DNA from: an uncultured Eubacteriales bacterium
GTDB taxonomy: Bacteria > Bacillota > Clostridia > Oscillospirales > CAG-272
Reading direction: 5' to 3'
DNA length: 64,000 bases
NCBI GenBank assembly: GCA_900544985.1
Contig: UQXK01000003.1
Location: forward strand, 3,670-67,669
The notes under the pieces are model-generated. The model was not told the DNA's origin and searched no databases. It saw nothing but the letters and a program-made list of their open reading frames with translations. Both the position numbers and the translations under genes were made by a program. This document shows positions 2,371-12,718 of this stretch, in pieces (the stretch's first letter is position 1; every line of letters begins with the position of its first letter).

Positions 2371-5300
2371 TTATACCATATCGTCTCTGTTGTTTTTCTG
2401 TTTGAGAACGAGAACAACTGCGATGCCTGCTATCGCTACGATTACTACGCAGATGATTATCGGAACAACGATGGAAGTGGAGCCTGCTTTCTTGTTGCTC
2501 GTCATAACTATGAATGTTCCGTCGGCAAATTTGCTGAAATCTTCTCCGGATATCTTTACAGATGAACCGTCGCGTTCTACGGGAACGTTTATTACCGTGT
2601 TGTCGGAGATGTATTTTACGAGAATTTCTTTCTTTGCGTAATCTTTGCCGAGGTCGATAACAAGATTTGTGTCTTTGTTCGGAGCAAGGCTCTCTTCGCC
2701 GAGTGTTATTTCGGTTTTGTATGCGCCGAATACTGTGCAATCGTATTTTTTGTCCGGATTATCGAATGCCTTGTTGAGGTAATCGATGTATTCAGTGTTT
2801 TCTTGTTCGAAAGCGGTATCTCTCTTTACGTTGAAGCCTACATCTTTGTTAGCGAGAACGCTGTCCGTTATATTGAGAGTGAATTTGTTGTCCACTGTTA
2901 TATCGAGGATAGTCGTTTTGCTCTTTGTTGTTTTGCTGAATACCGATTTACATACAAGACAGGTCTTTGTCGTTACTTTGCCTTTGGTGGTGGGTTCGCC
3001 CCATGTGTGACCGGAAGTGGGGATTATTTCCTCTTCTTCATGAGCGCAATGTGAGCAAATGTGCTTTCTTATACCGGATGCGGTACATGTTGCTTCTTTA
3101 ACCGTTATATATTCTCCATAGCTGTGTGCATTGGGATCTATCGCTATGTTCTCGGTTTTTGTTGTCTGGCAGACGGAGCAGGTGTATGTCTTTATTCCCT
3201 GGGATGTACATGTGGGTTGAAGAGTTACTTTTCCTTCGTCGAAGCTGTGTTCCGCAAAGGGAAGCTCTAATGTAAGAGTCTGATTACAGTAAATGCATGT
3301 TGATTGTGCTGTTCCGTGGGTCGTACATGTAGAGGGAGTTATGACAGTGAGATTTCCGGGATTTGCGGAGTGACCTGTTGCAGGGAGCGTCTGTGTTTCT
3401 GTCTTTCCGCATTTGGAACAAGATCTTGTCTGAACTCCGCTTTCGGTACAGGTTGCGGCTTTTGTGATTACCCATGAGCCCCATGTGTGTGAACCGGAGG
3501 AAGCTGCTTCTGTTTCTATCCAGGAAACACCGCATATCGAGCATTCGTATACGCTGTATCCGTTTTCACCGCATGTTGCGGCTTTGGAATATATTTTCTT
3601 CGCTGTGTTTGTGCCGTATTTTGTACTGCAAGTGCAATTATTCTTTGTTATGGAGAAGTTTACATCTGCATTGCATGTGGAGCATTTTGCATACCATGCA
3701 TTTGCGGAAGCATTCCAGTATATTGTATTTACGTTTATTTTATGAGAAGCGGGAATCGTAACGGGAGTTCTTATTACGGCGTGGCAGTCTTTGCATTCGA
3801 AATACTGTACTCCGGGGGTTGTACATGTTGCCGCAATGTTGTTAACGCCTGCGGTTACTTTTTCTCCGGGGGTGTGATCCTTTGTGGGGATCATACCCAT
3901 GTTTGCGGGAGCGCCGTCAGCCGTTGTGAGACGGCAACCGCATGTGGTGCAGAAGTAAGCGTAGATTCCTTCCGAAGAACAGGTTGCTTCTTTTATCGTT
4001 CTGCGTACAAGCGTTGTGGTCGTGCCGCTTTTGTGTGTGCAGAGATATGCTGTGTCATTTGAGTAGAAGGATTGAGATGTTTCTGTGTTTCCGGGATTGA
4101 GCTCGCCCGCAACTGTGAACGAAACCGATTTTCCGATAAGAACTGACGGTACTGTGTAAGAAAGGGTTATTGTTCCCGTATTGCTTGTTATATTGCTTAT
4201 CGAAATCGTTGTATTTCCGCTTAATTGGGTTACTGTCGCAGTGCCTCCGAGGAGAGTAAATGTATACGATGTCTGGCTGTTATATGTTACCCAGTTTACC
4301 ATTGCAAGTTGGAGGTTTGTGTTGGAGGGGGAGATATTGATAGTTGCGTTATTGAGTTTTGTGTTGGAGTTTATGGAGATTGTGACATCGAGTCTTCCGC
4401 TTGTGTAAGAATAAGTTACTTTAACGGCGGATTTTGTGTTATATGTTGTACGTGCCGATGTTATTGCGTTTATAAGACCGGAATCAAAATATGTCGTATA
4501 TTTTGAAAAAGCCATCATGCGGTCATATATGTCGAGTATCTTGGCATTTTCAGAGGCAGTGGAACCGAGCGCGAAATAATCGCTTGCTATCTGGTATGCC
4601 GTTTCTATTTCTATAACATAGCTGTCGGATATTTTTTCGAAAAATGCTTTTGCTTCTTCCGAAAGCTTATTATATTCATTGTGTAAGTTTGTTATTTTTG
4701 TCGGGATAGTTCCGTTTGCCGTTATAGGCGTTACACTTTGTGATGCTTCTATAAGTCTTGCCGCGCTCGATGCATTTCCTATAAACTTTTTTTCGTCAGA
4801 AGTAAAATAATTCGGTTCTGCTTGGCTTTTAGTTAAGGCTACGTCTACCGCACTTTTAAGAGCTGCATATGTTGTGGCGTTATTTATCGCGTCTATTTCG
4901 GGTTTTCCCGTTGTGGGTTTGTATGTCGGTGCCGCAAGGGATTCAAAATTTTTATAACCTTTTACAAAGGCTTTTTCGCGGGAATCGAATTTATCGAATG
5001 CGGTTTTTGCATTGTTGTAAGCGTCGTAATACTCTTTTGTGGCAACGTTTGCATTGTTTGCTCCGAGAGCCGCTACGGCTGCATCATAAGCAGGGGCGTA
5101 TTCATCTGTATAAACAGCCGCTCTTGCTCTGTATTTTGTGTGAACGCTGGTGAAATATGTGTAATCCGCTTCGTTCTTTACGCTTTCTGCAAGTGTTGAA
5201 TTTGCTTTAAGCATATTATCTATTGCGGTGGCTTTATTGTTTACCTCGGCGTTTCCGAAATACACTTCGGAAAGGTCATCTTTTGCCAAATTTCTCAGCT

Positions 5301-5439
5301 CGGCTACTGCCGCGTGAAAAGCTTCGTGGCTTGTGTCCGTGCAGGGGTCTGCGGCAAGCACCGCCGGTGTCAAGCACGCAAACAACAGCAATATCGAGAG
5401 AAGGGACGAAATAATTCTTTTTTTCATTTTTTCCTCCAA
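2371..5439 (-). CDS. large secreted, membrane-anchored surface protein with cysteine-rich tandem repeats
   Basis: 1022 aa. It has a signal peptide (MKKRIISSLLSILLLFACLTPAVLAA), a long Ala/Asn/Thr-rich N-terminal part, about 8 CxxC-containing repeats, and a C-terminal TM helix plus short charged tail (IVVPIIICVVIVAIAGIAVVLVLKQKNNRDDMV). Confidence 0.8.
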   Translation of the reverse strand: MEEKMKKRIISSLLSILLLFACLTPAVLAADPCTDTSHEAFHAAVAELRNLAKDDLSEVYFGNAEVNNKATAIDNMLKANSTLAESVKNEADYTYFTSVHTKYRARAAVYTDEYAPAYDAAVAALGANNANVATKEYYDAYNNAKTAFDKFDSREKAFVKGYKNFESLAAPTYKPTTGKPEIDAINNATTYAALKSAVDVALTKSQAEPNYFTSDEKKFIGNASSAARLIEASQSVTPITANGTIPTKITNLHNEYNKLSEEAKAFFEKISDSYVIEIETAYQIASDYFALGSTASENAKILDIYDRMMAFSKYTTYFDSGLINAITSARTTYNTKSAVKVTYSYTSGRLDVTISINSNTKLNNATINISPSNTNLQLAMVNWVTYNSQTSYTFTLLGGTATVTQLSGNTTISISNITSNTGTITLSYTVPSVLIGKSVSFTVAGELNPGNTETSQSFYSNDTAYLCTHKSGTTTTLVRRTIKEATCSSEGIYAYFCTTCGCRLTTADGAPANMGMIPTKDHTPGEKVTAGVNNIAATCTTPGVQYFECKDCHAVIRTPVTIPASHKINVNTIYWNASANAWYAKCSTCNADVNFSITKNNCTCSTKYGTNTAKKIYSKAATCGENGYSVYECSICGVSWIETEAASSGSHTWGSWVITKAATCTESGVQTRSCSKCGKTETQTLPATGHSANPGNLTVITPSTCTTHGTAQSTCIYCNQTLTLELPFAEHSFDEGKVTLQPTCTSQGIKTYTCSVCQTTKTENIAIDPNAHSYGEYITVKEATCTASGIRKHICSHCAHEEEEIIPTSGHTWGEPTTKGKVTTKTCLVCKSVFSKTTKSKTTILDITVDNKFTLNITDSVLANKDVGFNVKRDTAFEQENTEYIDYLNKAFDNPDKKYDCTVFGAYKTEITLGEESLAPNKDTNLVIDLGKDYAKKEILVKYISDNTVINVPVERDGSSVKISGEDFSKFADGTFIVMTSNKKAGSTSIVVPIIICVVIVAIAGIAVVLVLKQKNNRDDMV
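2945..4041 (-). repeat. protein-level tandem repeats (~35-45 aa, four Cys each) inside the surface protein
   Basis: Recurring pattern (K/E)ATC(T/S)xxG....xC..C........(I/L)PxxGH, for example HTWGSWVITKAATCTESGVQTRSCSKCGKTETQTLPATGHS and HSYGEYITVKEATCTASGIRKHICSHCAHEEEEIIPTSGHT. Confidence 0.7.
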
Positions 5440-5876
5440 AATTCAGATCAGAGTTTGTTTTGTTTTCCCGAAGTATTATGTACTTGTTTTTGGGAATATA
5501 TGCCTTTGATGCCAAATTTTTCTTTTTTGATTTTTGTCGTTCCAATATAGGTTTCCATACTATCTATTATAGTAAATATTGAGTTTTTGTCAAGAAGTTT
5601 GAAATCGGTAATTTTATCCCGCAAGACAAGTAAATATAATGTTTTTCCTTTATATAAAGGGAGTTTTGGCTGTTATTTCCGTTTTGGAACGACGTTATAT
5701 CCATAAAAAATATTTTTTTATGTTTTGTAAAAAAATTGATTTTTTCCGTGAACATGATATAAAAGCCGTATTTACCAAACTTTTATGCATATATAATATG
5801 TCGAAAGATAAAGATGTTTTTCTCATTGTAAAATATAGGCTTTTGTGTTTTTACATTTGTTTTTCATGTCTCTACT

Positions 5877-6084
5877 TTCCAAAGGACTCCGCTTCCACGA
5901 CCTGCGGCACTCATATGCAACTCTAATGCTTCAAAAGGGAATAAATCCGAAAATCGTGTCGCAGATACTCGGACATTCTTCCGTGTCGGTAACGCTCGAC
6001 ATATACAGTCATCCTCCTGTCGACGTGCAAAGCGTATGTCTTGATGTGTTCGAATCCGTAGAAAAGAAAAAAGCACCCATGTAG
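5877..6084 (+). pseudogene. truncated tyrosine-integrase C-terminus (remnant)
   Basis: Encodes only ...KGLRFHDLRHSYATLMLQKGINPKIVSQILGHSSVSVTLDIYSHPPVDVQSVCLDVFESVEKKKAPM. This equals the last ~68 aa of the intact integrase at 11733..12611, and no N-terminal or core-binding part lies upstream. Confidence 0.85.
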
Positions 6085-6099
6085 TGGGTGCTTTTTTTG

Positions 6100-6159
6100 T
6101 GGCGGAGAGATAGGGATTCGAACCCTAGTTGGAGGATTACTCCAAACACGATTTCCAGT
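6100..6159 (-). pseudogene. displaced 3' half of tRNA-Ser(GGA) (attL core)
   Basis: tggcggagagatagggattcgaaccctagttggaggattactccaaacacgatttccagt is identical to 12627..12686, running from the CCA end to the anticodon loop. No 5' half follows. Confidence 0.85.
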
Positions 6160-6300
6160 TTTCGCCGCAGGCGATAAAATCGCGGGTCTGGGCGCGAAGC
6201 CCAGTTTCACCGTGCCGCTTGCTGCGCGCGTGCGCATTATGCTACATATAAAGTTTTTTACCGAAATCGCCTCTTATAGCATAGCACCCGAAAGGGTGCT

Positions 6301-6615
6301 TTATGTATTCTTTATATTTATCTTGTTGTTATTTCCTTTTATATTTGTAACTTTGTTGTTATTCCCGTTAATCTGGGTCATATTCTTTATGCTGTAAGGT
6401 TTTCCATCTAATGTTCTTGGTACTTTTATAATTTCAGCTATATAGTCTATTGATACATTGTAATATCTTGCTAATTTTATTATGAAGTTGAATTTTGGTT
6501 CTCTTTCTCCATTTTCGTATCTTATGTATGTGTTTTTTGAAACATTTGCTTTTTTTGCGCATTGTTCTATTGTTAAGTCTGCGTCTTCTCTTAAATCTTT
6601 TAATCTTGTATACAT
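6301..6615 (-). CDS. XRE-family HTH repressor (prophage)
   Basis: Starts MYTRLKDLREDADLTIEQCAKKANVSKNTYIRYENGEREPKFNFIIKLARYYNVSIDYI; ATG at 6613-6615 is preceded by aaaaaaggag. The longer ORF-track version (to 6831) runs through the divergent promoter and is not credible. Confidence 0.8.
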   Translation of the reverse strand: MYTRLKDLREDADLTIEQCAKKANVSKNTYIRYENGEREPKFNFIIKLARYYNVSIDYIAEIIKVPRTLDGKPYSIKNMTQINGNNNKVTNIKGNNNKINIKNT

Positions 6616-6653
6616 ATAAACTCCTTTTTTTATTTTTATTATATTGAAATACT

Positions 6654-6711
6654 CCAAATGGGGTTGACAAAATACCCCGTTTGGGGTATTATTTATTTGT
6701 ACCCCAAACGG
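6654..6711. promoter_or_regulatory. divergent promoter/operator region of the prophage switch
   Basis: TTGACA (6664-6669), 17 nt, TATTAT (6687-6692) facing the structural genes. It is overlapped or flanked by three copies of CCCCAAA(C/T)GG / CCGTTTGGGG (6654-6663, 6675-6686, 6702-6711). Confidence 0.55.
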
Positions 6712-6743
6712 ATTTTTAAATTTAACAAAAAGGAGATAAAAAA

Positions 6744-6959
6744 ATGGCAAGCGAAGTAAAAGTATTGGCTCGTCTTGAAACGGAGCTTTGTAAAATGAGC
6801 GGAATTTCAAAAGCAGGTAATCAATACACAATGATAGTTTTCCGCTATCATGATCCTAATCTCGGAAAAGACGTTTTTTTGAAACCGTCAATGCAAAGTG
6901 ATCAAAACATGATCGAGCTTATGTATCTCAAAGGCTGGACGCCACCTAAACAAAGTTAA
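6744..6959 (+). CDS. small prophage protein (position compatible with an ssDNA-binding gV analogue; function unproven)
   Basis: 71 aa with a strong RBS (aaaggagataaaaaaATG). It is the first gene after the switch promoter and has no TM segment. Confidence 0.5.
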   Translation: MASEVKVLARLETELCKMSGISKAGNQYTMIVFRYHDPNLGKDVFLKPSMQSDQNMIELMYLKGWTPPKQS

Positions 6960-6999
6960 CTTGCAAGTTAAATAAAAATAAAAAAAGAAAGGAGAACAA

Positions 7000-7377
7000 A
7001 TGGAAGAAAAGAAAAACGTACAGTCTGTCGAAGAGGTAAAGGAGGAACCCAAAGCCAAAAAGAAACTTGGTAAAAAGAAACTTTTTTCACTTGCTCTTTG
7101 CATGATGATGTTTGTTACCATTTTTTCAATATCGGCTTTTGCTGTTGACGGTACTACTGCCGTTAATCCGATAGGCGGACTTCTCGGCGGAATCGGTGAC
7201 GGGCTTTCCGAATTTATGCCCGAAGTTGCACAAGCGGGTGTTACTACCGTCGATACTCTTTTCCTTAAAGCCGACGGCTCTTTCACCATTCTCGGTACAT
7301 TTATTATCGTCGGCATAGTTATATCGGTTGGACTCGGTATTTGGGGCTTTATCAAAAAGCGTGCAAATAAAGTCTAA
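7000..7377 (+). CDS. coat-protein-like small membrane protein (signal peptide, C-terminal TM, basic tail)
   Basis: RBS is aaaggaga. Signal peptide ...LFSLALCMMMFVTIFSISAFA-VDG, then a C-terminal hydrophobic helix ILGTFIIVGIVISVGLGIWGF followed by KKRANKV. Confidence 0.6.
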   Translation: MEEKKNVQSVEEVKEEPKAKKKLGKKKLFSLALCMMMFVTIFSISAFAVDGTTAVNPIGGLLGGIGDGLSEFMPEVAQAGVTTVDTLFLKADGSFTILGTFIIVGIVISVGLGIWGFIKKRANKV

Positions 7378-7431
7378 AAAATAAAGGCGGGAGAATAACT
7401 CTTCCGCCTTTAAAAATAAAAAGGAGTGTTT

Positions 7432-7710
7432 ATGAAAAATAAAAAGATTTTAATCATTTTGATGATGTTTGTTCTCGTTTTGGCATTTTGCATTCCCGCC
7501 TTTGCTTTGACATCGGAAGGAGTTCCCGAAGCGACAGAGCCGAGCACAAACTTTTATTACATAATCGAAGGTTGTTGGCGGTACATCTTTCCCGCCGAGG
7601 TTATAGAAGCAAACAGCAATATCATTGCATTTTTCACAATGATACTTACTATGGCTTTTGTTCTTGTGCCGTTCATCATTATTTTCAGCGTTTTCCGCAA
7701 AAAGAGGTAG
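7432..7710 (+). CDS. major-coat-protein-like small protein (pVIII-like architecture)
   Basis: RBS is aaaggag. Signal peptide MKNKKILIILMMFVLVLAFCIPAFA, acidic mature N-terminus (LTSEGVPEATEPS), hydrophobic helix IIAFFTMILTMAFVLVPFIIIFSVF, and basic tail RKKR. Confidence 0.6.
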   Translation: MKNKKILIILMMFVLVLAFCIPAFALTSEGVPEATEPSTNFYYIIEGCWRYIFPAEVIEANSNIIAFFTMILTMAFVLVPFIIIFSVFRKKR

Positions 7711-7716
7711 TAAATC

Positions 7717-7896
7717 ATGGTTAAGTGCTTTATGTATCTTGTAACAAATTTACTTCCACAATTCGCAAATTTTATGCGTTATTTTTTCGATAGTATAGAT
7801 TTGGTAGACTTCTTCACTTATGTGTTGCTTATCTCGTCTATACTTTTTGTCATTTATCTTATAAATCATTCTATAAGGAGGATAAATAAATATTGA
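7717..7896 (+). CDS. 59-aa hydrophobic protein (minor-coat-like; below the ORF-track size cut-off)
   Basis: My translation is MVKCFMYLVTNLLPQFANFMRYFFDSIDLVDFFTYVLLISSILFVIYLINHSIRRINKY. The stop TGA overlaps the TTG start of the next gene (tTTGA). Confidence 0.45.
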   Translation: MVKCFMYLVTNLLPQFANFMRYFFDSIDLVDFFTYVLLISSILFVIYLINHSIRRINKY

Positions 7897-9119
7897 AAAA
7901 GAAAATAATCATCACTCTGATCTGCGTCGTTGTTGTCTCTCTGCTTTCTATAACTTGTAGTGCCTATTTCACATCTGACTTAAATACAATTGATGTTTCA
8001 TCATATTTCACGTCGTCTTCTGTTGTTGCGGCTCTTCCTCCTTATGGTGGAGATTACGGTTATTGGGAACTTGATAATTCTTTCATGCTTTCCGACGGTC
8101 AATATGTAAAATGTTCAAATGTGAATTATCTTTTATTGTGTCCTTTATATACTGGTGAAACTTCGTATTTAAATTTTGAAATTACTTTTAAACGTTCAGG
8201 TTATTCTGAAACCTATGGTATAAGTATAACTGTTGATTCTTCTTATACTTCTATATCTATTGATAAGATCGGTGATATTTTAAACCTTTATTCAACTTCA
8301 TTTTATTATTGTGTTTCTGAACGTCCTAACATAGTTATAAGCTTTGCCAATTTGCTTAATGCTCTTTATTCTAATTCTTCATACTTTTCTTCATCTAACC
8401 CTTGTTACAGTTTTTCTTTAACTTGTTCAGATGATACTTGTTCTTGTGAATCTTATGTTTCTCTTTCTTTAAACTCATCCGGTGGAAGCGGATCCACTTG
8501 CACACGACCTCATATAACCGACTCAAACGGTGACGGTTATGACGATTCATCTTACAATGCAGGCGTTCAGTTCGGAAAAAATACATATGGAAAAGTAGAC
8601 GCAAACGGCGACGGTTACGACGATCCGTCATATACGGCAGGATATAACGCAGGACTTTCCGCAGGTGGCGGAAGCTCTTCGGGCGGATCTTCTTCTGAAT
8701 TTGTCGATATTGATTTTGACGGCTATGATGACCGTTCATATAATGCCGGTTTTGATTCAGGCGTTGAGTTAGGTAAGCAGTTGTATGGTATTAAGGATAA
8801 TAATAATGATACTTATGATGATGATTCTTACAATGCCGGATATAATTCAGGATATAATTTAGGATTTGACGAAGGAGCTGCTTCATCTGACGGATATAAC
8901 GTAGGTTTTGAAGCAGGGAAGAAGTGGCAAAAGAATAACGACGAAAGCACAGGCGCCGTATCTGACTTTGTAACGGACGTCGGCGGAACTGTCGTTTCTT
9001 CATTTTTGTACTTTGGAAAAAACGTTGAATTTCTCGGTATCTCTCTTCTTTCGCTTTTAGGCGTTCTCGTTGTCGGCTTTGTTGTATTCTTTATCTTCCG
9101 TAAAGTAAAGGGCGGTTGA
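7893..9119 (+). CDS. adsorption/minor-coat-like protein (pIII-like architecture) with DGYDD repeats
   Basis: 408 aa. It has a signal peptide (MKKKIIITLICVVVVSLLSITCSA), a Cys/Ser-rich N-domain, Gly/Ser linkers (SSGGSGS, SAGGGSSSGGSSSE), four D-x-(N/D)-G/x-D-G/T-Y-D-D-x-S-Y-x-A-G repeats, and a C-terminal TM plus basic tail (LLGVLVVGFVVFFIFRKVKGG). Confidence 0.6.
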   Translation: MKKKIIITLICVVVVSLLSITCSAYFTSDLNTIDVSSYFTSSSVVAALPPYGGDYGYWELDNSFMLSDGQYVKCSNVNYLLLCPLYTGETSYLNFEITFKRSGYSETYGISITVDSSYTSISIDKIGDILNLYSTSFYYCVSERPNIVISFANLLNALYSNSSYFSSSNPCYSFSLTCSDDTCSCESYVSLSLNSSGGSGSTCTRPHITDSNGDGYDDSSYNAGVQFGKNTYGKVDANGDGYDDPSYTAGYNAGLSAGGGSSSGGSSSEFVDIDFDGYDDRSYNAGFDSGVELGKQLYGIKDNNNDTYDDDSYNAGYNSGYNLGFDEGAASSDGYNVGFEAGKKWQKNNDESTGAVSDFVTDVGGTVVSSFLYFGKNVEFLGISLLSLLGVLVVGFVVFFIFRKVKGG

Positions 9120-9120
9120 T

Positions 9121-9708
9121 ATGAGCAAAATATTCATCGGCTTGATTGTATTTTTTTGCGTCATAGCTTTGATTTTCTCTTATGCTTCAAACTTTGATTA
9201 TACCTATGATGAAAATGCTGATTTTTCCGCCGATTTTAAACAATCCGTAGACATTAACAGCGGAATGTTTAAAACTTCTTTCCATTCTGTTTTTGATACT
9301 CTTGATACCGTTATTTCTTTTGTTCAGAAATCGTTTAACGATATCCTTTATGCTCTTGACTCTTCACATCGTTACACGAGTGAAGAATGGGAAAACTTCT
9401 TTGAACAGCTCTACGAGCGTTCATATAATTACTGCAAAGAAAATTCGAATTTCTTTAACCGTGCTATTTGCTTTGAATACCTCGAAAAATTTTATCAGGA
9501 GCTTTCTATGTGTGTTAAATATTCTGATTATGTTCCCGGTAACATTATGCAAGGTGTTACCTTTGCCAACGATAGTTGGTGGCAGGATTGGTATAAAGAT
9601 TTCAATTGGTCCGATAGCGACCTTTTAAAGATACATCAGTATCTTACATCTTTGAATATTCCCCATATGTTGTATGGTCAAAAATATTGTTTTGGAGATG
9701 AAACATGA
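9121..9708 (+). CDS. prophage membrane protein (N-terminal TM), unknown function
   Basis: 195 aa, begins MSKIFIGLIVFFCVIALIFSYA. The start lies 1 nt after the previous stop, and the stop overlaps the next start (ATGA). Confidence 0.5.
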   Translation: MSKIFIGLIVFFCVIALIFSYASNFDYTYDENADFSADFKQSVDINSGMFKTSFHSVFDTLDTVISFVQKSFNDILYALDSSHRYTSEEWENFFEQLYERSYNYCKENSNFFNRAICFEYLEKFYQELSMCVKYSDYVPGNIMQGVTFANDSWWQDWYKDFNWSDSDLLKIHQYLTSLNIPHMLYGQKYCFGDET

Positions 9709-10541
9709 AGTACGTTTTAATAGTTTCTTTGATAGTTTTTGCGATATGGTTTTTCTATTCGCTTTTCACATCTAAATCGATTCCACTTGAAAGGGAAAAC
9801 CTTTTCATTGGCGGTGTCAAATGCGGAAAGACGGGAACGGGAAGCGTTTACCTTATCAAATGGTTTAAAAGCCGTTATAGACGCTACATCTTTTCTAAGA
9901 TACGACATCCGTTTAATAAAAAGAAACGTGAGCCGAAGCCCGTTGTATATACTTCTATTCCTTTTAAGTTACCGTATAAGCAAAAATCCCGAAGCCTTAC
10001 GGAAAATTATCTTCTTATGGAAACACTTCTTCCCAATGAATGCACATCGATTTTTTTCGACGAAGTGGGACAGGTTGCCAACCAGTATGATTATGATTAC
10101 GAATCTGTAAAAACGAACATACAAACGTTTATCCGCTTTTACGGTCATTTTATCAAGGACGGTTATGTTTTTACAACAGAGCAAGCCTCTGACTTCATAG
10201 CAAAGCCGATACGCGCACGTTTTAATTGTGCCGTAGAGGTCAAGCGTTTTCACCGTTGTTTTATCTTTCCGTTTGGAAAAGTGAAGTGGCGTTCTATCGG
10301 CATGACAAACGACATCATGAATACAAAGGACGTTTCTGATGATTCATGGAACACGGCGTTTTTCTTCTTCCCGTATAAAAGGCGCTATGATCCTCGCGCA
10401 TATTCCGAAGCGTATTCTTTGGGATTTACCCATGAGCGCCCGCCTGTTTTTTGGGACTGTAAGAAGAGCATGAAGACGCGCTATCTGGCAGACGTCAGAC
10501 GTAAGCCAGAGCGCAGCATATACGCTCCGATAGTGGGTTAG
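9705..10541 (+). CDS. Zot / pI-like P-loop assembly ATPase
   Basis: Walker A is GGVKCGKTGTG and Walker B is SIFFDEVG, followed by FYGHFIKDGYVFTTEQ, which resembles the RHxGxDhhhhTQ signature of the Zot family. An N-terminal hydrophobic helix reads VLIVSLIVFAIWFFYSLF. Confidence 0.6.
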   Translation: MKYVLIVSLIVFAIWFFYSLFTSKSIPLERENLFIGGVKCGKTGTGSVYLIKWFKSRYRRYIFSKIRHPFNKKKREPKPVVYTSIPFKLPYKQKSRSLTENYLLMETLLPNECTSIFFDEVGQVANQYDYDYESVKTNIQTFIRFYGHFIKDGYVFTTEQASDFIAKPIRARFNCAVEVKRFHRCFIFPFGKVKWRSIGMTNDIMNTKDVSDDSWNTAFFFFPYKRRYDPRAYSEAYSLGFTHERPPVFWDCKKSMKTRYLADVRRKPERSIYAPIVG

Positions 10542-10593
10542 ATCCTCGGAAGAGAGGGGATGTGAGCGCAGCCGCGCCCCTCTCTTCCGGATC
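10541..10593 (+). other. GC-rich stem-loop in the prophage intergenic region (candidate origin or packaging signal)
   Basis: gatcc-tc-ggaagagagggg ... cccctctcttcc-ggatc: a 12+5 bp stem with a 2-nt bulge and a 17-nt loop. Confidence 0.5.
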
Positions 10594-10651
10594 TTGCCGG
10601 AGCGACTTTTCAAAAGAAAGTTTTTCTTTAAAACAGAGAGAAATTTTCTTC

Positions 10652-10680
10652 ATTACCCCCGATAGTAGCACGGGGGTAAT
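10652..10680 (+). other. second stem-loop in the prophage intergenic region
   Basis: attacccccg-atagtagca-cgggggtaat: a perfect 10-bp stem with a 9-nt loop, about 90 nt upstream of the rep start. Confidence 0.5.
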
Positions 10681-10767
10681 CATCCCCATTACTTTTTCTT
10701 TTTTTTGGCTCTGTGACTTGCTTTTTTGCACTTTTCATGTATAACGCTTTTTTTGAGGTTTTTTGCT

Positions 10768-11736
10768 ATGAAAAAATTACTTGTTGACTATCTTACAATG
10801 TCTTTTAAATATCCCGACCATTTTGAAAAAGTCCTTATAGATTCTTTGAATCTTCCTACTGATGAAATTGAACTTATAAAGTCACATTTTGGACTTTCTA
10901 ACTGTATTTATTATGACGGTATTTCTATTCACTTCGACGATGAGTTGGTTATTTTAGAGATGTCCGGTAAAGGTTGTCGAACCTGTGAGGATCTGAATCC
11001 TTATTTTGATTGGTATTCTTTCATTCATTCTTTTGACAATGGTATTTTTCATTCCGCCGATGATCCGTGTTATGTCCATATTTCCCGTATAGATATAGCT
11101 CTTGATGATATCGATAATTCTATCGTTGATATTCCTCTTCTTCAAAAATATGTTCGTGCAAAAAAATATGTTTGTTCTTCTCGTTATGTTTCTTGTATCG
11201 ATGGTACTCGTGAATTGGCTGTATATTTCGGCTCTCCAAAGTCTACGCGCCGACTTCGTATTTATGATAAACGTTTGGAGCAGAAGCTTCCCGATGATTC
11301 TCCTTCTTGGGTCAGATATGAGTTCCAGCTCCGCGATGAAAATGCTTTATCGTTTTATTTGAATCTTCGTCTTTGTAACGGTAATTTTTCAAAGTGTTAT
11401 TTCGGCGTTCTTTCGAATTATCTTAATTTTGTAACAAAGCCCCGCGATGATGTCGGTCACCATACCGAGCGTCTTTCTACTGTTAAGTGGTGGAGTGATT
11501 TTTTGGGGAATGTTTCCGAACTCAAAAATCTTTATTTGCCCGGAAGGGAATATTCTCTTCATTCTGTTGAGAGCTATTTTACAAAACAATGCGCGTCGAC
11601 GGTCAAAACGCTTTATCTCGTACATAAGCATAAAAGCGGAGGAGATGTTTCTTCTTTTCTCGATATGGTCGATTCCGCTTCCTTAAATTCTAAACAAAAA
11701 ACTTTGTACGAAAATTATATTTCTGAAAAAGGTTGA
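10768..11736 (+). CDS. rolling-circle replication initiator, Rep_trans family
   Basis: Motifs are HISRIDIALDD, LAVYFGSPKSTRRLRIYDKRLEQ and WVRYEFQLRDENA. The likely ATG is at 10768 (MKKLLVDYLTMSFKY), whereas the ORF track starts at 10726. Confidence 0.7.
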   Translation: MKKLLVDYLTMSFKYPDHFEKVLIDSLNLPTDEIELIKSHFGLSNCIYYDGISIHFDDELVILEMSGKGCRTCEDLNPYFDWYSFIHSFDNGIFHSADDPCYVHISRIDIALDDIDNSIVDIPLLQKYVRAKKYVCSSRYVSCIDGTRELAVYFGSPKSTRRLRIYDKRLEQKLPDDSPSWVRYEFQLRDENALSFYLNLRLCNGNFSKCYFGVLSNYLNFVTKPRDDVGHHTERLSTVKWWSDFLGNVSELKNLYLPGREYSLHSVESYFTKQCASTVKTLYLVHKHKSGGDVSSFLDMVDSASLNSKQKTLYENYISEKG

Positions 11737-12611
11737 TTATGCTTTTATTTGATTTGTTAAAAAAATTCGATGAGATATACATAACTCAAAGGTTGAAGCC
11801 GACTACCGCAAACGGTTATCGCGTAAATATCCGACTGCATATTCTGCCTTATTTGGGTGATAAAGATGTTCTTGCTTTGACTGTCGACGATCTGGATCAT
11901 CTTACCGTACTGCTTCAAAACAAAGGGTTATGCAACCGTACGATTGTTTATGTTCATGCAACATTGCGTAAGTGTCTGAACTTTGGAATCCGCCGGGGAT
12001 TACTTCCGTATAATCCGTATAATCAATTCGATATGCCGAGGAAGAAACGTTTTGAATATACTGTTCTCAACGAAGATCAGATCTCTCTTGTTCTCTATAA
12101 TTGCCGCGGAACACGAATAGAAAACGCTGTTATTCTTGCGCTATGCTATGGAATGAGACGCGGAGAAATCCTCGGTATACTTCCTTCTGACTTTGATTCT
12201 GTCAATGGAGTTCTCCATATACAGCGAAGCCGAACGCTCGTAAACGGTAGTGAAGTTATTACCGATTGTAAAACGAACAATAGTAATAGATACGTCTTAA
12301 TTGCACCACGGCACTATTATTTGTTTTCAAATGAAAGTCAATTTTCTATTTCCCCGTGGACGCTTGATGTTTTGTTTCACAATTTCGCCGATTCCCTCGG
12401 ACTTCCAAAGGGACTCCGTTTTCACGACCTGCGGCACTCATATGCAACGTTAATGCTTCAAAAGGGAATAAACCCAAAAATCGTGTCGCAGATACTCGGA
12501 CATTCTTCCGTGTCGGTAACGCTCGACATATACAGTCATCCTCCTGTCGACGTGCAAAGCGTATGTCTTGATGTGTTCGAATCCGTAGAAAAGAAAAAAG
12601 CACCCATGTAG
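11733..12611 (+). CDS. tyrosine recombinase / phage integrase
   Basis: 292 aa. Catalytic signature is ...GMRRGEILG..., LRFHDLRHSYATLML, GHSSVSVTLDIYSH. It overlaps the rep stop and ends 15 nt before the tRNA 3' end. Confidence 0.9.
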   Translation: MIMLLFDLLKKFDEIYITQRLKPTTANGYRVNIRLHILPYLGDKDVLALTVDDLDHLTVLLQNKGLCNRTIVYVHATLRKCLNFGIRRGLLPYNPYNQFDMPRKKRFEYTVLNEDQISLVLYNCRGTRIENAVILALCYGMRRGEILGILPSDFDSVNGVLHIQRSRTLVNGSEVITDCKTNNSNRYVLIAPRHYYLFSNESQFSISPWTLDVLFHNFADSLGLPKGLRFHDLRHSYATLMLQKGINPKIVSQILGHSSVSVTLDIYSHPPVDVQSVCLDVFESVEKKKAPM

Positions 12612-12686
12612 TGGGTGCTTTTTTTGTGGCGGAGAGATAGGGATTCGAACCCTAGTTGGAGGATTACTCCAAACACGATTTCCAGT
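12403..12686 (+). repeat. right copy of the direct repeat (integrase 3' end plus terminator plus tRNA 3' half, attR)
   Basis: See 5877..6159. The offset between the copies is 6526-6527 nt. Confidence 0.9.
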
Positions 12687-12718
12687 CGTGCGCCTTAGAC
12701 CAACTCAGCCATCTCTCC
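12627..12718 (-). tRNA. tRNA-Ser (anticodon GGA), class II with long variable arm
   Basis: The reverse complement reads ggagagatggctgagttggtctaaggcgcacgaCTGGAAAtcgtg...gggttcgaatccctatctctccgcca. The anticodon loop is cuGGAaa and CCA is encoded. Confidence 0.85.

Follow-up and report, generated by a model that had tools for sequence, protein, structure and literature searches.

We identify, in a 64,000-nt stretch of DNA from an uncultured Eubacteriales bacterium (GenBank assembly GCA_900544985.1, contig UQXK01000003.1, positions 3,670 to 67,669; referred to here as the window), a 6,527-bp unit at positions 6160 to 12686 that is very probably an integrated temperate filamentous phage (Tubulavirales, an "inovirus" in the wider meaning of the term) whose host is a monoderm gut bacterium of Clostridia type. 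The original prediction for this stretch, a complete and possibly active inovirus-type prophage integrated in tRNA-Ser(GGA), is supported at its core by the anatomy of the attachment (att) sites, by Pfam matches, by several lines of evidence on the morphogenesis ATPase, and by a circular form of the element. The prophage appears to be intact and of an undescribed lineage, and it is probably active, because the same element recurs as a closed circle in another metagenome. On balance, we favor the view that it still produces particles.

An intact tRNA-Ser(GGA) gene is present at 12627 to 12718 (minus strand), found by both ARAGORN and Rfam (57.3 bits); apart from tRNA, the Rfam scan returned nothing above threshold. 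The 3' 60 nt of this gene (12627 to 12686) form the attR core, supplied by the phage, and recur as an exact 60/60 copy at 6100 to 6159 (minus strand), the attL core, which represents the displaced tRNA 3' end and also scores as a partial tRNA-like match in Rfam. The integrase gene is convergent with the tRNA gene and ends 16 nt from the tRNA 3' end. The earlier claim that duplicated tRNA-Ser 3' halves bound the unit thus holds for these 60 nt, but it left unexplained that the direct repeat is really 286 nt long (5874 to 6159 versus 12401 to 12686, 97% identical according to a repeat finder), because the left copy also holds the 3' end of a related integrase gene. Each copy comprises the last ~226 nt of an integrase gene, including a terminator hairpin, followed by the tRNA half, and the start-to-start spacing of the copies is 6,527.

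The mismatches between the two copies are unevenly placed. All nine fall within 5878 to 5949, those from 5892 on are all synonymous, and 5950 to 6159 matches the right-hand copy without a single difference. Since synonymous-only divergence is hard to account for otherwise, the fragment at 5874 to 6099 (plus strand; the last ~70 to 72 codons of an integrase gene plus the terminator hairpin) is best read as the remnant of a related prophage that occupied this tRNA earlier. On an ENA scaffold described below, it is called as a 72-amino-acid (aa) Phage_integrase fragment. The present phage would have entered a tRNA gene regenerated by this earlier occupant, and the relic beside attL suggests that tRNA-Ser would be a site used repeatedly. 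Farther left, the flank (5440 to 5873) shows no similarity to the element or to any of its relatives.

The exact ATPase sequence of the unit is also found in two other public assemblies. On the ENA scaffold (L009) it is accompanied by the same flanks and the same integrase relic. The second, JGI contig Ga0557493_088115 (L010; sample 3300053491), is exactly 6,527 nt long and consists of window positions 10655 to 12686 joined to 6160 to 10654 at 99.8 to 99.9% identity (BLAST), running from the integrase gene through the repeat to the side of the XRE repressor gene, with ends that abut at 10654|10655. This contig represents the element in circularly permuted form, spanning the int-attP-XRE junction, that is, a closed circle, and provides the circular ~6.5-kb junction that the original prediction had proposed to look for.

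Direct repeats longer than the k-mer give loops in assembly graphs, and the 6,527-nt contig might therefore be an assembly artifact in which the 286-nt repeat of an integrated copy was collapsed; short Logan contigs carrying the right-flank gene indeed break exactly at the repeat boundary, and a related contig (L004) ends at its tRNA half with a k-1 overlap. We regard this explanation as unlikely. The break in L010 lies ~4 kb from the repeat, at no branch point, which argues against simple repeat collapse, and its length agrees with that of the unit to the single base, leaving no room for attached chromosomal sequence. Moreover, a relative with 96% ATPase identity is present as two human-gut contigs (L016 and L017, 7,353 nt each), each with a 55-nt terminal overlap, which are 100% identical with an offset of 372 nt and hence represent a 7,298-nt circle assembled twice, independently. 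Neither has a chromosomal flank, and ARAGORN found no tRNA gene on L016, to which L017 is identical, although no search was made for a partial, tRNA-derived att segment. This circle keeps the morphogenesis module at 87 to 96% nucleotide identity and carries a different integrase (302 aa), a different XRE gene, and extra small open reading frames (ORFs).

Three Logan contigs of ~1.1 kb (L012 to L014) carry the right-flank gene. Two of these (L012 and L013) start ~170 nt upstream of the gene, where the tRNA-half repeat ends or right beside that point, which fits an assembly-graph branch there in those samples, and L014 starts ~56 nt upstream. A 30-nt terminal overlap on L004 was rejected as a sign of a circle because it is located exactly at the repeat boundary and is thus ambiguous.

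The gene at 9705 to 10541 (plus strand) encodes what we conclude to be a divergent pI/Zot-type morphogenesis ATPase, with an N-terminal transmembrane (TM) anchor (residues 4 to 22) followed by Walker A (GGVKCGKT, residues 36 to 43) and Walker B (FFDEVG, residues 117 to 121) motifs. The search with Pfam Zot (PF05707) that had been proposed for this gene gave no match, a PHROG scan of the protein yielded nothing usable either, and because of this its family membership rests on transitive and structural evidence from sequence, profile, and fold. A tblastn search against deposited phages retrieved only Zot-annotated ATPases of 5- to 8-kb circular "Inoviridae" genomes from rodent and pig feces. The best match is bajarodino virus 71 (9e-20, 30% identity over 85%; pairwise 2e-27), whose own ATPase passes Pfam Zot with 26 bits versus 20.3. 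An exhaustive profile search over 1.84 billion representatives recovered 352 relatives; among the 118 that were aligned, 68 match Pfam Zot at E<=0.01 (best, 5.3e-11), and the next-ranking families (AAA and PhoH) reach P-loop level only. With Zot matched by its relatives and not by the window ATPase itself, the latter is therefore a divergent relative beyond the reach of the current Pfam model.

Structural comparison points in the same direction. An AlphaFold (AF2) model built from the 118-sequence alignment (predicted local distance difference test score [pLDDT], 94.9; predicted template modeling score, 0.90) matched in the PDB, by Foldseek at E<=1e-3, only 2r2a_A/B, the N-terminal domain of a Neisseria Zot protein (1e-05). 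Within BFVD, the name Zonular occludens toxin [Inoviridae sp.] is carried by four of the top eight matches. An earlier AF2 model based on a shallow 11-sequence alignment (pLDDT, 45) was discarded. By hhalign, the ATPase family aligns with M13 pI around Walker B (94.9% probability, E 4.7e-08) and weakly with Orf8 of phage B5 (57.6%).

The ATPase family also has a consistent membrane topology. Of 113 members, 111 have a TM segment ahead of Walker A and only three have a later one; the window protein has its single N-terminal TM segment, no second one, and no extracytoplasmic C-terminal domain. This is the reverse of the layout of Ff pI and Vibrio cholerae Zot, since in Ff pI the ATPase domain is N-terminal and the TM anchor comes after it. 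The enterotoxicity of V. cholerae Zot is linked to the extracytoplasmic C-terminal domain, and the "Zot" label in the present element denotes an assembly ATPase.

The remaining genes follow the M13 module order V-VII-IX-VIII-III-VI-I-IG-II, whose places are taken by g71, the trio g125/g92/g59, g408, g195, the ATPase, the intergenic region (IG), and the replication initiator (Rep), respectively. Pfam and PHROG scans gave no family for any of the structural candidates (g125, g92, g59, g408, and g195), and for this reason we take their structural roles from features and position, with signal peptides and TM segments read from a simple hydropathy scan. The candidate coat protein g125 (7000 to 7377, plus strand) combines a signal-peptide-like TM segment at residues 31 to 49 (...SAFA/VDG) with a second TM segment at 96 to 114 and a basic tail (KKRANKV). 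Its C-terminal 65 aa are kept at 39 to 51% identity in relatives L003 to L008, as a stand-alone protein of ~70 to 77 aa in L003, L004, and L005, and as the end of a longer ORF in L003, L004, and L006 to L008. A second candidate coat protein, g92 (7432 to 7710, plus strand; 82 or 92 aa according to gene callers), has a signal peptide, an acidic N-terminal region, a TM segment at 70 to 88, and the basic tail RKKR, and is kept in L003 to L008 at 33 to 43% identity. After predicted signal-peptide cleavage, g92 and g125 would measure ~67 and ~75 aa, respectively, and both would retain a single TM segment and a basic tail. The third protein, g59 (7717 to 7896, plus strand), is a 59-aa single-TM protein with a basic tail (43 to 45% identity in L003 and L004) and a candidate minor coat protein of pVII/pIX-like type. 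The original prediction had described all three as carrying a signal peptide, a TM segment, and a basic tail, which is correct for g125 and g92, whereas g59 has no signal peptide.

Downstream, g408 (7893 to 9119, plus strand) is a pIII-like candidate adsorption protein that shares the layout of Ff pIII, namely, a signal peptide, Gly/Ser linkers (GGSGS and GGGSSSGGSSS), and a C-terminal TM anchor, here with a basic tail, behind a variable N-terminal domain. Within residues ~200 to 340 (window 8490 to 8920) it holds four or five copies, set apart by Gly/Ser linkers, of a repeat, D-x-N/D-G-D-G-Y-D-D-x-S-Y-x-A-G, which we take to resemble calcium-binding DxDxDG loops. Repeats of this type also occur in the distant relatives L007 (8710 to 9237) and L008 (8707 to 9235), and the C-terminal third of the protein is kept in L003 to L008; a search of deposited phages returned no match. 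The following protein, g195 (9121 to 9708, plus strand), has an N-terminal TM segment, occupies the position of pVI, and is 22 to 34% identical to its counterparts in L003 to L008. As had been predicted, no capsid, terminase, tail, or secretin family is matched in Pfam or PHROG by any of the ten ORFs, and no toxin or resistance cargo is recognizable in the element.

The ATPase gene is followed by an intergenic region (10542 to 10767) that may serve as packaging signal and/or replication origin. It contains a GC-rich hairpin of ~59 nt (10540 to 10598) and a second hairpin (10653 to 10683), and its DNA fold of -39 kcal/mol (z = -5.1 versus shuffles) confirms the structured region noticed earlier. 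A strong GC-rich hairpin is located at, or at most ~200 nt from, the ATPase stop in all relatives examined, although the sequences differ. The next gene (10768 to 11736, plus strand) encodes a rolling-circle replication initiator with Rol_Rep_N (PF18106; 5.5e-07, 30.2 versus 23.7 bits) and Rep_trans (PF02486; 1.8e-33, 116.3 bits versus 29.6, profile positions 2 to 197 of 201) domains. Its best matches in the phage collection are small circular fecal inovirus genomes (bajarodino virus 45, 37% identity over 99%). The last gene (11733 to 12611, plus strand; 290 aa from position 11739 according to gene callers) encodes a tyrosine integrase, matching Phage_integrase (PF00589; 1.7e-20, 73.9 bits versus 27.1), SAM_3 (7.7e-08), and phrog_1 (1.7e-53), in which the catalytic R...HxxR...Y can be read as RRGE, HDLRH, and LDIYSH. 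Both Pfam assignments had been proposed as checks and turned out as anticipated.

A unit with these genes might also be an integrative mobilizable element (IME) or an integrated rolling-circle plasmid, forming a circle but no virion, with Rep_trans acting as replicase or relaxase, the integrase inserting the element, and the membrane proteins and ATPase serving transfer or another membrane function. XRE repressor, tyrosine integrase, and Rep_trans together are a common IME layout, and Rep_trans proteins also occur in plasmids and as relaxases of IMEs and integrative and conjugative elements, e.g., ICEBs1 NicK and Tn916 Orf20. In addition, the coat-like proteins have no assigned family, an excised IME would equally give a circular contig, and g125 shows a weak similarity to the TrbC/VirB2 pilins (Pfam, E 0.024). 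We nevertheless consider such an element very unlikely here, as the pilin match is far under the cutoff (15 versus 27.9 bits), and the ATPase is of Zot/pI type by family census, fold, and hhalign rather than a coupling protein of VirD4/VirB4/FtsK type. The nearest deposited relatives of both ATPase and Rep are 5- to 8-kb circles classed as Inoviridae, and gene order and protein features parallel those of M13 and B5 gene for gene.

Seen as a filamentous phage, the element can be placed among those already described. Inoviruses have been defined by a pI-like ATPase, their only conserved marker, by short single-TM structural proteins (30 to 90 aa), and by att or circular ends (Roux et al. 2019, PMC6813254). 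They enclose circular single-stranded DNA in flexible filaments that leave the cell without lysis; genes for an icosahedral capsid, terminase, or tail are absent, and members with monoderm hosts have no secretin either. We find here a pI-like ATPase, short single-TM proteins near it (g59 and the processed forms of g92 and g125), and a small packed genome with att repeats and a circle, free of the capsid, terminase, tail, and secretin families searched for. The same study catalogued inoviruses of monoderm hosts at scale, with four candidate families having monoderm or wall-less hosts. Burckhardt et al. 2023 (PMC10061712) described inovirus prophages of 6.5 to 8.5 kb, flanked by direct repeats, in gut Enterocloster and Hungatella, with secretion shown by quantitative PCR of DNase-protected DNA for four of four tested strains, filaments seen by transmission electron microscopy for E. 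bolteae and one E. clostridioformis strain, and secretion both in vitro and in mice. The earlier statement that no inovirus from such gut anaerobes had been characterized is thus out of date, and because these phages were shown to be secreted in 2023, our element is not a new kind of phage; among the phage genomes deposited so far, none is closely related to it. Compared by description, the Enterocloster/Hungatella prophages resemble it in their monoderm gut Clostridia hosts, direct repeats, pI homolog accompanied by 10 to 16 short ORFs, and lack of a secretin; their secretion is established by experiment, whereas that of the present element is predicted. When species-representative genomes were scanned with the ATPase family, only four loci emerged and Enterocloster was not among their hosts, which indicates that the pI lineage is probably different.

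The fecal circular "Inoviridae" (bajarodino viruses, Inovirus sp. MT135295, and Dulem viruses) are similar in genome size, at 5 to 8 kb. Bajarodino virus 71 (PQ006122) shares the order of N-terminal TM segment and then Walker A in its ATPase, and bajarodino virus 45 (PQ006152) shares a Rep_trans-type Rep. These genomes are episomal records, however, and the one table that was inspected, that of bajarodino virus 71, annotates no integrase or XRE switch. BLAST detects no relationship between their coat and adsorption proteins and those of the present unit, and the whole element has no nucleotide match among deposited phages, these included. No paper came up in a literature search on the "bajarodino" viruses. 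Propionibacterium phage B5 (Paulinoviridae, Bifilivirus) likewise has a Gram-positive host, no secretin, and the same gene order (small structural, large structural, a small one, a pI-like protein of ~300 aa, and Rep), but it is GC-rich, has no annotated integrase (non-integrating), and its Orf8 lacks a TM segment before Walker A. The Ff phages (M13/fd/f1) differ by their pIV secretin, diderm host, lack of integration, and a pII initiator distinct from Rep_trans.

Across the family, the morphogenesis module is kept while Rep, integrase, and repressor are swapped. Free exchange of replication and integration genes among inoviruses was shown by Roux et al. 2019 (PMC6813254). L003 has the same structural module with a REP_ORF2-G2P initiator (PF23343; 5358 to 6239) in place of Rep_trans, and L004 carries Rep_trans and integrase, ending in a tRNA-Ser-like half. 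The ATPase gene of L003 is split by a frameshift into ORFs at 4349 to 4768 and 4693 to 5331. The four loci from the genome scan (46 to 48% ATPase identity) come from genomes labeled uncultured Clostridiales UMGS461, Clostridiales UBA7568, Eubacterium sp. CAG:841, and one "Sphaerochaetaceae" metagenome-assembled genome (MAG). Three of the four lie beside tRNA-Lys(TTT) with exact 40- to 52-nt att repeats spaced 7.5 to 8.1 kb apart, and the UBA7568 locus stops short of any tRNA. The Sphaerochaetaceae MAG (L007, CAVKJG010000002.1) has its prophage at tRNA-Lys, and all other hosts are Clostridiales; its label may reflect mis-binning or a mislabeled genome. In IMG/VR, a scan using the ATPase family turned up no relatives.

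Several observations weigh against reading the unit as a functional filamentous phage. The window ATPase has no Pfam Zot match even at E<=1 (gathering threshold, 20.3 bits), and profiles A1 and A2 gave P-loop-level matches only against PDB sequences. The putative coat and adsorption proteins match no described family in Pfam, PHROG, or deposited phages; a homolog search with g71 returned near-identical copies only, making it an ORFan, and a single-stranded DNA (ssDNA)-binding protein was not identified in the unit. The circular contig could in principle reflect tandem copies, or a plasmid-like form that replicates, instead of phage DNA. An empty tRNA-Ser site, which the original prediction had suggested seeking, was not found: JGI metagenomes gave 0 matches to an exact pattern in which the left flank and the tRNA 5' half are linked by 280 to 292 nt, and a look-up with the right-flank gene returned lysogens only, or short contigs broken at the repeat. 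The TAG stop of the ATPase gene (10539 to 10541) comes eight codons ahead of the stop in the 96%-identical relative (P0001), which has GAG in its place and extends by EIPGREGM.

Some of these points would also fit a defective or domesticated filamentous prophage, fixed in its host and producing no particles. All long contigs with the right-flank gene carry the prophage, none showing an empty site, the ATPase is shortened relative to that of its closest relative, and the integrase relic is a sign that decay does occur at this tRNA. Such a state is most unlikely in view of the ten genes, all intact, with good ribosome-binding sites and tight coupling, and of the near-identical closed circle in an independent metagenome, with a close relative assembled as a circle twice. 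The tail lost through the early TAG is not conserved in the family, more distant relatives having acidic or Pro-rich tails of 30 to 55 aa that reach into the hairpin region.

Ninety percent of the unit is coding, with ten genes whose neighbors are separated by gaps of -4, -4, -4, +1, and +6 nt, and all are on the plus strand except the XRE gene, so that the overlapping, one-stranded arrangement described earlier is confirmed. The unit had also been called visibly more AT-rich than its flanks; this is real (37.8% GC versus 43.0% in the window) but modest, ~1.5 standard deviations under the mean of 6.5-kb windows. The T content of the coding strand is 34.3%, compared with 34.7% in the M13 plus strand, the T-richness of Ff phages being a shared trait, and 21.3% in host genes.

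Next to attP, a noncoding GC-rich arm (6160 to 6300) contains small hairpins (folding z = -2.2, weak) and a terminator-like hairpin (6283 to 6300) behind the XRE gene. The latter (6301 to 6615, minus strand) encodes an XRE/Cro-CI-type helix-turn-helix repressor (Pfam HTH_3, 1.8e-16; phrog_8 and phrog_3), divergent from the other genes; homologs 41 to 46% identical occupy the same position in L003, L004, and L006 to L008, and L005 was examined and none was found. The segment between the divergent genes (6616 to 6743) has the features of a genetic switch. A rightward promoter, TTGACA-17-TATTAT (6664 to 6692; 11/12 sigma-70-type match), is bracketed by three copies of CCRWWTGGGG (6654 to 6663, 6677 to 6686, and 6702 to 6711), which are the only matches in the whole window, against 0.6 expected, and plausibly form the operator set of the repressor. 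The first gene of the rightward operon, g71 (6744 to 6959, plus strand), encodes a small soluble protein with no Pfam or PHROG family that, by its position, which is that of M13 gene V, is a candidate ssDNA-binding (pV-like) or regulatory protein.

From these features, a life cycle can be proposed. As the anatomy of the site indicates, the integrase would recombine attP, a copy of the tRNA-Ser(GGA) 3' 60 nt, with the chromosomal tRNA gene, restoring an intact tRNA at attR and leaving the displaced half at attL. The XRE repressor, bound to the three CCRWWTGGGG sites, would silence the operon at its single rightward promoter. Derepression would lead to excision as the 6,527-bp circle, a form seen in public data. 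As suggested by its family, the Rep_trans protein would then nick an origin, which probably lies within the hairpin-rich intergenic region, and release single strands by rolling-circle replication. To judge by the synteny with M13 and B5 and by the features of the proteins, these strands would be coated and would cross the membrane through the action of the N-terminally anchored pI/Zot-type ATPase, taking up the membrane-inserted coat proteins g125, g92, and g59, with the pIII-like g408 and g195 as putative caps. No secretin would take part in export because an outer membrane is absent.

The surroundings of the element are host genes. The window carries rpoB, rpoC, fusA, tuf, alaS, and adhE, and is therefore chromosomal. 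The best PDB chain matches of its RpoB are 8i23_C and 7l7b_C, followed by 6wvj_C, which we take to be the polymerases of Clostridium thermocellum, Clostridioides difficile, and Bacillus subtilis, respectively. Together with the hosts of related prophages, this is consistent with a Clostridia-class Firmicute and agrees with the host proposed originally. To the left of the element, a gene at 2371 to 5439 (minus strand) encodes a protein of 1,022 aa that combines a signal peptide and a C-terminal TM anchor with many repeats containing Cys-x-x-Cys (...C(T/S)xxG...CxxC...); it has no NCBIfam match at E<=1e-10 and is preceded by a perfect 12/12 sigma-70 promoter (5593 to 5566).

Filamentous phages of Gram-positive gut anaerobes are mostly predicted, and only a handful have been tested. 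The element described here is an unusually clean case, with intact modules, exact att sites, the relic of an earlier occupant, a matching circle in an independent sample, and circular relatives in the human gut. It illustrates the exchange of integration and replication modules among such phages and offers a tractable model for virion assembly and export without a secretin, using an N-terminally anchored pI. More tentatively, and as a possibility we hold to be somewhat doubtful, the prophage may belong, together with its 350-odd relatives, to a separate clade of filamentous phages of monoderm hosts that has a rearranged, N-terminally anchored assembly ATPase, replicating as circles in the human gut and swapping integrases between tRNA-Ser and tRNA-Lys targets. 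If this were true, it would imply an export machine unlike the pI/pXI-pIV paradigm of the Ff phages.

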